DNA of 64,000 nucleotides. Source: a virus. Lineage: Duplodnaviria > Heunggongvirae > Uroviricota > Caudoviricetes. The notes under the pieces were generated by a model that saw only the letters and a program-made list of their open reading frames with translations, did not search any database and was not told the origin of the DNA. The stretch is taken from the IMG/VR virus record IMGVR_UViG_2541047715_000004. The stretch is one strand, 5' to 3'. Below are positions 23,224 through 24,796 of this stretch, piece by piece. The stretch's first letter is position 1, and every line of letters begins with the position of its first letter. Both the position numbers and the translations under genes were made by a program.

Positions 23224-23282
23224 AGCCTGCTTCTGTATATATAAATAACTACATATTAATTATTAATATACGGAAGCAGGCT
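23224..23282. repeat. palindromic element CCTGCTTCTGTATATA...TATACGGAAGCAGG (copy 1)
   Basis: 16-bp arms around an AT-rich loop; near-identical arms recur at 52944-52999. Confidence 0.6.
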
Positions 23283-23388
23283 GTTTTATATCAGAGACTC
23301 CCAGACCTGAACACCACTACAGAATCCACTAGAACCCCTTCCCAGACGCTTTAAAATCGATTTTATGAACCACTTTAAGGAAACCAAC

Positions 23389-23619
23389 ATGTCATACCCG
23401 ACTAATGTCGTTGCGCTCGTAGAGAGCGATTTTCTGGCCCAGGCTCGTGAAATGATGAAAGATCGTGAGCAGGCTTTCAACTTGTACGAATGGGCAATTA
23501 AGTGCTTGCATCTTGGGGAGCATCGCGAACTTGTTGAACAGCTTTTAGGTGAGTTGATCAACGAGGTGTTTGCCTTGAATGTTCAACTACATGGTCGAAA
23601 AAATAATCAATCGAAATGA
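23389..23619 (+). CDS. hypothetical protein
   Basis: Start taken at MSYPTN Met with AAGGAAA RBS. Confidence 0.4.
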   Translation: MSYPTNVVALVESDFLAQAREMMKDREQAFNLYEWAIKCLHLGEHRELVEQLLGELINEVFALNVQLHGRKNNQSK

Positions 23620-24205
23620 TAGATAAGTACAAACTATTCATAAAGTGAATTGTAAGTGCTAAGATCTGATAGTTTCCAGTCGTAGACTGGAGGCTCGACC
23701 TGATGGGTGGGGGTAAGCGTCACTGGCGTCAGGTTTAAAAAAGCTCACTACCAGCGTAGAACCGGCACCGTTTAGGGGTTGGGGAAGGGGGAACCAAAGT
23801 GAGCAGAGACAAGGGTCACTTTATGATTGTCGAGTCTGGGGTGTTTCGAGAGGTTGAATCCAGTACTCCCCTTCATAAAGTGTGGGAAGATCTCGGTTCT
23901 GGGGTGCTGTCATCCATAACTTCCCAAGCCTAAGCTGGCAGTAGACTTAGGTCATAACTTTTCAGGTTATGAAACGACCAGGTTGGTGAGGAAATTTTGT
24001 ACTCACCTCCCTGGGAGAGTATTACCTGAAAAGACAACCTCTCACTTCGTTCGAGGTGAACTTCACTCACTTCGTTCGTTCAGTTCAGGTTTATAAAAAC
24101 CTGTTCTGGGAAGTAATTTGTTTATTTTAATAATTATTAACACGCACGCGTGTGCGCACGCGCGAGGAAAAAAAAATCGGCGCGGCGCTTGATTCAGGAG
24201 TTTAT

Positions 24206-24796
24206 ATGACGACGAAGACACCAGCCCGATCGCAAGCAAAAACTCGCAAAAATGACAAAAACAAAAATTCTCCCCGCACCAATTCCACAACGCCTGTCGT
24301 AGAGTTCAATCCCCAGCTTAAAACCGTGAAAATCTTCAGTGATGGCTCTTGCCTTAAAAATCCGGGTGGCCCGGGCGGTTACGGTATAGTTCTCCAGTAT
24401 GGTGGTGAGGAACGCGAGTTCTCAGATGGTTTTCATAGCACCACCAATAACCGCATGGAGATGATGGGGGCACTTATCGGGCTGGAGCGTTTGAAATATC
24501 CATGCAACGTTATTTTGTACTCTGATAGCCAGTATCTGAAAAACGGCATGACACAGTGGATGAAATGGTGGAAACGCAATGGATGGATGACTTCTGACAA
24601 AAAACCGGTAAAGAATGTTGATCTGTGGAAGCGTCTGGATGAGGCCGCAAGTCGACATAATGTTCGCTGGAAGTGGGTTAAAGGTCACGCCGGGCATCGT
24701 GAAAATGAAATATGTGATCGACTCGCGAAGATCGCAGCTTTTTCAGCAGCAGATATGCCTCACAAGAAAGATATTGGTTTTGTTTATAACAAGTAG
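24206..24796 (+). CDS. rnhA: ribonuclease HI with N-terminal basic extension
   Basis: Core [21 protein letters not shown]...NNRMEMM...SDSQYL...[19 protein letters not shown] parallels E. coli RnhA; start taken at ATG 24206 with AGGAG RBS. Confidence 0.85.

Follow-up and report, generated by a model that had tools for sequence, protein, structure and literature searches.

What does a phage-plasmid encode in a gap of its genome in which no credible gene can be recognized? The question is raised by nucleotides (nt) 23620-24205 of the virus record IMGVR_UViG_2541047715_000004, of which a stretch of 64,000 nt was analysed (referred to as the window). The gap extends from the stop of an open reading frame (ORF) of 76 amino acids (aa) at 23619 to the ATG of the ribonuclease (RNase) H gene rnhA at 24206. 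It contains short ORFs only (30-46 aa), none of them conserved, in agreement with the original prediction, which was made from the sequence alone, described the gap as ORF-free and structured and offered four readings, i.e. a non-coding RNA, an intron remnant, a recombination site or an origin. The first of these is well supported by a transcript, by conserved structure and by conservation among relatives. The other three found no such support: for an intron remnant there was no Rfam match at gathering thresholds and no intron or ribozyme model even at E<=10, and a recombination site or origin gained no positive evidence, the gap showing no DnaA boxes and no repeated motifs beyond two 13-mers. 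We consider it probable that the region is a stand-alone + strand gene for a large structured non-coding RNA of ~455 nt, for which we propose a protein-linked mode of action. The locus shows the general marks of such a gene, namely a conserved promoter, a transcript above those of the neighbouring genes and compensatory base changes, the RNA ends being predicted. The RNA is made while the phage is dormant, i.e. in the lysogenic state.

The window derives from an E. coli phage-plasmid of the SSU5/pHCM2 type. The 1.2 kilobases (kb) around the locus match several ~110-kb E. coli plasmids at 100% identity and the phage-plasmid Cyrano (pLF82) at 98.6-98.8%; for Salmonella phage SSU5 and for phage-plasmids of Klebsiella the value is 81-83%. 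Taken alone, the gap (23693 to ~24172) shares 89-94% identity with the Salmonella, Klebsiella, Enterobacter and Citrobacter copies, compared to 81-83% with the flanking genes included. The conserved part is the following:

23693-24117, + strand: conserved core of the RNA (425 nt)

Identity within 23700-24100 amounts to 0.92-1.00 per 50-nt bin versus 0.53-0.82 in neighbouring coding sequence, showing that the core is conserved across genera far above its flanking genes. All 83 loci of the initial collection contain the block full-length and in the same position, as do nearly all later IMG/VR loci having the 76-aa ORF or rnhA, the exceptions being truncated contigs and L161/L162. We counted the element in 687 of 72,556 PLSDB plasmid records (about 1%) and in 12 phage records, and regard it as specific to phage-plasmids of the SSU5/pHCM2 type from E. 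coli, Salmonella and Klebsiella; a metagenome scan added five further loci. Diverged copies are found in two Logan contigs, L259 and L257 (76-aa ORF 65% identical). Two other contigs, L260 (2726-3437) and L261 (Logan SRR28417476 / SRR28417470), keep the synteny, with the small ORF (70% identical), RNase H genes and an ORF-free gap of 700 nt, of which the + strand folds far better than shuffles (z=-6.7). This gap shows no homology to the RNA by nhmmer or by the covariance models R1 and R2 described below, and it may be a replaced or strongly diverged counterpart. No plasmid relatives were found for L257-like and L260-like sequences.

The covariance-model and tRNA scans proposed with the original prediction matched no family. 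Rfam 15, whose families include group I/II introns, RNase P, tmRNA, 6S, ROOL, GOLLD and known sRNAs, gave at gathering thresholds 0 matches across the whole window and 0 on the divergent homologues, the matches at E<=10 lay far below gathering scores and were mostly to microRNA precursors, and ARAGORN found no tRNA or tmRNA in the window. A literature search for non-coding RNAs of SSU5/pHCM2 phage-plasmids found nothing relevant; a 2026 preprint on phage-plasmid copy number deals with a different family. The RNA is a new class within a known kind, the large structured phage-encoded RNAs, having no match in Rfam or in the literature searched.

Transcription of the locus is evident from published RNA sequencing (RNA-seq) of Cyrano, in which the annotated gene CYRAN_81 corresponds to window positions 23799-23933. 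Its log2(fpkm+5) values (fpkm, fragments per kilobase per million) range from 6.8 to 10.35 in all 10 samples (PMC9928086, Table 1, S1 Table), compared to 3.1-5.8 for CYRAN_80, the small ORF, and 2.6-5.0 for CYRAN_82, rnhA, on the same scale (PMC9928086). From this table we calculate a level about 12-14-fold above both neighbours. CYRAN_81 is among the genes 12-fold above the prophage background in lysogens grown in LB (Misson et al. 2023, PMC9928086), and it peaks in bacteria inside macrophages at 6 h (PMC9928086). In the same data CYRAN_43, annotated as 'hypothetical protein' (minus strand, 40822-40268), lies ~700-fold and CYRAN_40 ~15-fold above background (PMC9928086, S1 Table); these may be further mis-annotated RNAs or lysogeny genes of this phage-plasmid family.

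The gene can be divided into the following features, of which the promoter was identified by eye from the aligned lineages:

23637-23665, + strand: sigma-70-type promoter with -35 TTCATA (23637-42), 17-nt spacer, TG (23657-58) and -10 TAAGAT (23660-65)
23675-23691, + strand: 5' terminal hairpin P0, CCAGUC-GUA-GACUGG in the window
23697-23804, + strand: 5' domain, composed of helix 1 (23697-23735), an A-rich linker and helix 2 (GCUCAC 23743-48 / GUGAGC 23799-804) around a G-rich arm
23880-24034, + strand: central domain with the helix UGGGAAG/CUUCCCA, hairpins 23902-23915 and 23928-23952 and a long arm 23958-24033
24037-24057, + strand: hairpin a, a stem ACCU/AGGU around the first 13-mer CUCACUUCGUUCG (24041-24053)
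24058-24086, + strand: hairpin b, a stem GAACU/AGUUC with a UC/UC internal mismatch and the second 13-mer (24066-24078)
24087-24129, + strand: 3' end with hairpin AGGUUU-AUAA-AAACCU (24087-24102), the invariant UCUGGGAAGUAA (24105-24116) and a U-rich tract (24117-24129)

The promoter is kept in every lineage including the divergent L259 and L257, within an otherwise variable stretch, each lineage having a hexamer resembling a -35 element, separated by 17-18 nt from an extended -10 (TGn-TAAAAT, TAGAAT, TAACAT or TATGAT in lineages other than that of the window), with an unchanged distance to the core. It is followed by P0, which has nine sequences in nine lineages, each forming a hairpin immediately 5' of CUCG, with arms such as CUUCCGGA/UCCGGAAG, GAUUUCGA/UCGAAAUC, GCUGGCAGA/UCUGCCAGC or GUCUGGC/GCCAGAC. 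Because a hairpin of variable sequence follows conserved promoter signals, we infer a transcription start at ~23672 and a 5' terminal stem-loop. At the other end, the hairpin 24087-24102 covaries (UA to GC in 8 copies) and conservation ends at 24117, after UCUGGGAAGUAA. A U-rich run follows the core in most lineages, being weak in the Klebsiella lineage, and 24117-24129 is likely the terminator region. In the Enterobacter plasmid L006 an insertion of betT replaces everything past ~24128, leaving the RNA intact at 97.7% identity.

The predicted secondary structure is conserved and shows extensive compensatory changes. The prediction of a structured region is borne out by the folding energy of the + strand (23690-24125: -155.5 kcal/mol, z=-3.65). 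RNAalifold on 59 distinct copies predicted 128 pairs with 99.8% of cells paired, and this full-length fold contains 78 both-side-change cells compared to 1-5 in controls in which the partners were slid by 1-3 columns. In the 5' domain (model R2) 98.8% of cells are paired and 9 of 29 pairs are changed on both sides (0-2 in slid controls); L257 has six consecutive pairs of helix 1 swapped for other pairs, ACCUGA/UCAGGU being replaced by GUUACG/CGUAAC. The central domain (model R1) shows 99.4% of cells paired and both-side changes in 20 of 46 pairs (0-2 slid), with the arm CCAGGUUGGUGAG/CUCACCUCCCUGG becoming CCCUAUGGGAU/AUCCCAUAGGG, and for the 3' module the value is 16 of 22 pairs (2-6 slid). 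L257 is retrieved at 29, 62 and 39 bits when one covariance model is used per domain, the match to R1 being full-length (62 bits, E~1e-14). The alignments of the divergent copies were fitted to the covariance models, which favours those models; whole helices are nevertheless replaced by different complementary sequences. A Y-shaped 3' fold suggested by RNAalifold (helix CGAGGUGA/UCACUUCG) was rejected, L257 and L259 being unable to form it and forming the two hairpins instead. A conserved G-quadruplex was likewise ruled out, as the first G-run varies among lineages.

Across the predicted pairs there are 797 G-U cells versus 3 A-C cells, and all one-sided changes at otherwise Watson-Crick pairs are G-U intermediates. 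These G-U-type substitutions indicate that selection acts on one RNA strand. Together with the orientation of the promoter, the U-run and the folding energies (+ strand -155.5 versus - strand -128.6 kcal/mol), the ratio of G-U to A-C indicates that the + strand is the sense strand.

Two duplicated segments had been noticed in the gap, and both are found as described: tctggggtg at 23835-23843 and 23898-23906, and ctcacttcgttcg at 24041-24053 and 24066-24078. Both pairs are unchanged or nearly so across the 59 distinct copies. The second is the 13-mer of hairpins a and b. Across its instances, including those in other phages and bacteria described below, positions 1-13, 4-10 and 5-9 covary, 2-12 and 3-11 stay U-C and C-U, and the loop reads UNC; all three covarying pairs are of the Watson-Crick type in 14 distinct variants, e.g. 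CUCGCUUCGCUCG, UUCGCUUCGCUCA, CUCCCUUCGGUCG and CUCAUUUCAUUCG. The helices of hairpin b are 94.8-95.8% paired with both-side changes present, L257 having AAACC-UC-AACCGC-UUC-GCGGUU-UC-GGUUU and L259 AGAGC-UUCGCUUCGCUCA-GCUCU. L257 furthermore carries CUCGCUUCGCUCG at the place homologous to the 13-mer of hairpin a, and the same 13-mer compensations are found in L257 and L259 at homologous RNA sites.

The constraint on nearly every nucleotide of the core, the independent promoter and the expression in the carrier state suggest a stable RNA working through its three-dimensional structure. This is consistent with a model according to which the RNA would start at ~23672 from its own sigma-70-type promoter, open with a protective 5' hairpin, close with a 3' module of two mini-hairpins each displaying CUCACUUCGUUCG and end in the U-rich tract at ~24117-24129. 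It would act in trans as a stable protein-binding or scaffold RNA during plasmid maintenance, the nearly invariant central domain being its functional core and the paired U-C/C-U mismatch hairpins serving as a module for protein recognition and/or 3'-end protection. Its promoter might be co-controlled by a factor binding a 20-bp palindrome that lies at many transcription-unit boundaries. That the RNA acts with protein partners seems most likely to us, with modest confidence. To our knowledge, bacterial or phage non-coding RNAs of more than 400 nt with near-total sequence constraint are rare, and those that we know to be understood proved to be ribozymes or ribonucleoprotein cores. More tentatively, it is possible that the RNA represents an unrecognised class of large 'ornate' RNA, switched on in lysogeny and strongest in macrophages, which would form a ribonucleoprotein core or a ribozyme governing the plasmid/lytic decision or host physiology, its 3' module being a new hairpin motif of phages and distant bacteria.

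Several observations weigh against this interpretation. Both RNA ends are predictions. The promoter is absent from the list of a consensus scan, and the conserved U-rich run starts at least 13 nt past the last simple stem; since a terminator scan called no canonical intrinsic terminator at 24080-24130, the 3' end is inferred. Covariation in the central domain and the 3' module stems largely from L257 and L259, close relatives being mostly invariant there. Since the + strand served for the prediction of the full-length structure, the raw G-U count is biased; the pattern of one-sided substitutions is free of this bias. The substitution 24079 T>C in hairpin b (15 copies) gives A-C on the + strand and G-U on the - strand, and on the - strand the 13-mer would form a more conventional hairpin, with G-A pairs in tandem and a triloop of the GNA type, for which a somewhat higher stability is predicted. 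The expression study makes no statement on strand-specificity of its gene counts (PMC9928086). The position beside rnhA in a replication cluster fits a role in replication as well, and no sequence feature points to a partner or phenotype, so that the trans-acting, protein-binding mode is a guess.

The main rival is an origin of the ColE1-like primer/R-loop type, which we regard as unlikely. The RNA would then be an RNA II-like pre-primer, read toward the AT-rich 24115-24139, where a persistent hybrid would be cut by the phage RNase HI and would prime the leading strand for lytic or auxiliary replication, the GC tract acting as a clamp or barrier. The layout resembles that of ColE1, a gene for a small helical protein being followed by a structured RNA of ~450 nt, a stretch of 80-93% A+T and RNase HI; its place within the replication/nucleotide-metabolism cluster and the six + strand G-runs of at least four would suit such an origin as well. 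However, anchoring of the R-loop in ColE1 uses an RNA G-run matched by a template C-run about 20 nt before the origin, and here the runs of at least four all lie at 23709-23901, only a GGG (24108-10) and no anchoring run being present near the 3' end; the first G-run moreover varies among lineages. A RepB-family initiator 17 kb from the locus already serves plasmid maintenance, and no DnaA boxes were found. The RNA is abundant in lysogens in which the neighbouring replication genes are silent, and the RNA and rnhA each occur without the other. The consensus scan predicts no - strand promoter inside the RNA body for an RNA I-like antisense RNA; its nearest - strand promoter-like site (23678-23649, weak evidence from a consensus scan) lies upstream of the core and is directed away from the body of the RNA. 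The 76-aa protein does not resemble Rop, and a sequence constrained almost throughout its 425 nt would be unlike RNA II.

A cis-acting leader or attenuator of rnhA, i.e. a long 5' untranslated region (UTR) mostly terminating before rnhA and read through under some signal, appears quite unlikely. It would account for the RNA lying on the same strand directly upstream of rnhA, being about 14-fold above it and being separated from it by a U-rich tract and GC hairpins. Yet the two are separable: L006 lost rnhA and keeps the RNA at 97.7% identity, and L161/L162 have a close RNase H (88% identical) without the RNA. In addition, conservation stops at 24117, the 90 nt to the start codon vary in sequence and length, and no riboswitch or leader family was matched.

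Very unlikely, in our view, is an element acting at the DNA level (a protein-binding array, a packaging or recombination site or a single-strand hairpin signal) with incidental transcription, in which the purine-rich - strand of the 13-mers would form G-A/GNA mini-hairpins. It draws on the - strand hairpin b (29 nt, GAACU-GA-AC-GA-AC[GAA]GU-GA-GU-GA-AGUUC), which is predicted to be stabler than the + form, on the loop varying as GNA on the - strand, on 24079 T>C being tolerated there as G-U/G-T and on the UCUGGG/CCCAGAC boxes and 20-bp palindromes, which suggest DNA-binding factors in the region. Against it, the 797 G-U versus 3 A-C cells and the compensatory pairs over about 100 base pairs point to a folded + strand RNA; the conserved promoter, the covarying 5' hairpin, the discrete abundant transcript and the weak DNA folding energies of both strands likewise speak against it.

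Hardly credible, finally, are small protein gene(s) as annotated in Cyrano: the 44-aa CYRAN_81 (23799-23933) carries a CDS annotation in OV696614 and was counted among the expressed 'morons', but it starts with GTG, is broken by 1-2-nt indels (frameshifted or truncated) in Klebsiella-type and L071 copies and absent from L259 and L257, has no Pfam or PHROG match, and the lineages share no ORF on either strand.

The 13-mer hairpin, which recurs in distant phyla, may constitute an RNA (or single-stranded DNA) motif in its own right, with a wide distribution. In the window the two-hairpin module accounts for no more than ~50 nt at the 3' end of a far larger RNA. An exact search for two 13-mer copies at 25-nt spacing retrieved SSU5-type elements and tandem 25-nt arrays in distant metagenome-assembled genomes (MAGs) of Saprospiraceae, Bacteroidales, Acidobacteriota, Deltaproteobacteria and Kryptoniota (L084-L087, L089-L091, L093-L098). 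The T4-like viral contig L188 (9007-9288, 3006-3093) has a double module, then a T-run and a TTGACA...TATAAT promoter. The Bacteroidales arrays lie upstream of apparent lgt and pheS genes, as judged by eye from the N-terminal translation, and one Saprospiraceae MAG has arrays at several contig ends. No description of the motif was found in the literature or Rfam, and its best complementarity to E. coli 16S, 23S and 5S rRNA is 10/13, i.e. chance level.

The locus lies within a nucleotide-metabolism/replication cluster (nrdAB, thyA, DHFR, 3'-5' exonuclease, Dam and RNase HI), and its surroundings comprise these features:

23389-23619, + strand: 76-aa ORF, PHROG 5343, preceding the RNA in every case
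24206-24796, + strand: rnhA, Pfam RNase_H (PF00075), E=2e-45
24140-24164, no strand assigned: alternating purine/pyrimidine (CA/CG) tract of 25 nt, outside the RNA core
24154-24188, + strand: GC-rich hairpin (GCGCACGCGCG...CGGCGCGGCGC, A9 loop), 7 nt ahead of the rnhA Shine-Dalgarno sequence
23619-23638, no strand assigned: imperfect copy of a 20-bp palindrome, abutting the -35 of the RNA promoter, its centre at about -43.5 from the predicted start
2881, 4834, 8341, 13025, 17737, 22578, 23619, 24796, 49710, 54999, 56506, 58422 and 61997: sites of the 20-bp palindrome

The 76-aa protein belongs to a small family (29 clusters) and has no Pfam match. Its AlphaFold2 model shows three helices (pLDDT 78) and has no match in the PDB at E<=0.001, and a four-helix bundle of the Rop/Rom type was not recognized in it. 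The rnhA homolog had been predicted correctly (ATG at 24206, RNase_H match E=2e-45); the Pfam domain of the phage RNase HI is preceded by an N-terminal extension of ~40 residues that is basic and of low complexity (24206-24330). PADLOC defence-system models matched none of the neighbouring proteins.

The alternating tract ACACGCACGCGTGTGCGCACGCGCG shows, as described before, exactly 25 nt of strict purine/pyrimidine alternation. It does not mark the end of the element, as had been assumed, being located ~10-20 nt past the conserved 3' boundary of the RNA in the rnhA upstream region. It is the longest alternating run in the window, the next having 15 nt, and 200 mononucleotide shuffles gave longest runs of 16.2 nt on average and of 23 nt at most. 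The relatives show 15-27 nt of alternation with differing sequences (ACACGCACACGCACACGCACACGCGCG in L071 is not palindromic), and pHCM2 has the tract shortened by a 10-nt deletion; because alternation is kept while the sequence changes, the conserved property appears to be alternation plus a CGCGCGAGG-A(n) motif. The tract follows the U-rich tract of the RNA and an AT-rich spacer and is itself followed by CGAGG, an A-run and a GC arm able to pair with it. The resulting A9-loop hairpin is predicted in most lineages, its 3' arm missing in L257, and lies close to the rnhA Shine-Dalgarno sequence (24195-24200). Tract and A-loop hairpin belong to the rnhA upstream region and not to the RNA. By its long strict alternation, rich in CG and CA, the tract is predicted to be prone to Z-DNA formation; it may be a candidate for Z-DNA, a 5' UTR hairpin or a protein site.

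Upstream of the RNA, the palindrome family ATAGGTAAGTnnCTTAyCTAT has 33 matches in the window compared to 0.97 expected (both strands, at most 3 mismatches), the 13 sites being intergenic in 12 cases and mostly just past a + strand stop codon. The motif is found ahead of the RNA promoter in every lineage. It may serve a phage regulator as operator or form an RNA hairpin between cistrons, and the copy adjoining the -35 of the RNA promoter points to the possible involvement of a common regulator. At some sites the palindrome lies between -35-like and -10-like hexamers, and an unrelated viral contig (L161:2812-2831) carries it ahead of a gene resembling rnhA.

Between the Dam gene and the 76-aa ORF there is a long hairpin (23224-23282; 17-nt arms, 94% complementary, AT-rich 25-nt loop), which is kept in the relatives examined except L257 and has the appearance of a bidirectional terminator. 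Boxes of the CCCAGAC type (two to four, e.g. ACTCCCAGACC, CTTCCCAGACG) are located at 23300-23350 upstream of the 76-aa ORF and in the same region of the SSU5-type lineages examined (L002, L003, L005, L041, L071, L075), with a degenerate single copy in L259, L257 and L260; most lineages, that of the window not included, also carry GTCTGGGAG in inverted orientation where the Dam gene ends. The boxes complement the UCUGGG motif, which occurs three times in the RNA (23835, 23898, 24105), and show a 9-nt perfect match to its invariant 3' tail. The RNA has no complementarity of at least 13 nt to the rest of the window, which argues against simple antisense action.

Reading the locus as an RNA gene corrects an annotation error, the locus having so far been annotated as nothing or as a hypothetical protein, and existing expression data having read the RNA as a hypothetical-protein 'moron'. 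The phage-plasmids that carry it are frequent among clinical E. coli, Klebsiella, Salmonella and Enterobacter, and the RNA occurs in genetically tractable hosts and in cultivable phage-plasmids (Cyrano, SSU5).

Comparison with known systems places the RNA as follows. It shares with the ColE1 RNA II module the size of ~450-550 nt, the structured character, transcription toward a region rich in AT and the vicinity of RNase H and of a small helical protein gene, but it differs in that no RNA I promoter was predicted, no suitably placed anchoring runs and no Rop-like protein were found, the element has its own Rep initiator and RNA and rnhA are separable. An abundant RNA that contains direct repeats and is followed by a nuclease gene of low expression recalls type III toxin-antitoxin systems with ToxI-like RNAs, whereas here only two 25-nt repeats are present in a 455-nt non-repetitive RNA next to an ordinary RNase HI with no PADLOC match. 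Membership of the ToxIN type was ruled out, there being only two 13-mers at 25-nt spacing and the downstream protein being a PF00075 RNase H and not of the ToxN/AbiQ type. P1 c4 and P4 CI are short (~70-80 nt) immunity/regulatory antisense RNAs with defined complementary targets; they are likewise non-coding RNAs of temperate elements expressed in the prophage/plasmid state, but the RNA described here is about 6 times longer and lacks complementarity of at least 13 nt to the rest of the window. Intergenic stem-loop cassettes are known as bacterial REP-type 3' stabiliser hairpins and as the promoter-early stem-loops of T4-type phages, and the two-hairpin 13-mer module resembles them in recurring in intergenic positions, yet has its own signature N-UC-NN-UNC-NN-UC-N with the invariant U-C/C-U. 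ROOL, GOLLD and similar 'ornate' RNAs are large structured non-coding RNAs of phages and prophages whose function is unknown. From these the RNA differs in having no Rfam match, in being smaller (~455 nt) and confined to one enterobacterial phage-plasmid lineage, in lacking tRNA neighbours and in its lysogenic expression; it is like them in its several hundred nucleotides with many helices, in being carried by phages, in its strong conservation of sequence and structure and in not being the leader of a neighbouring gene.

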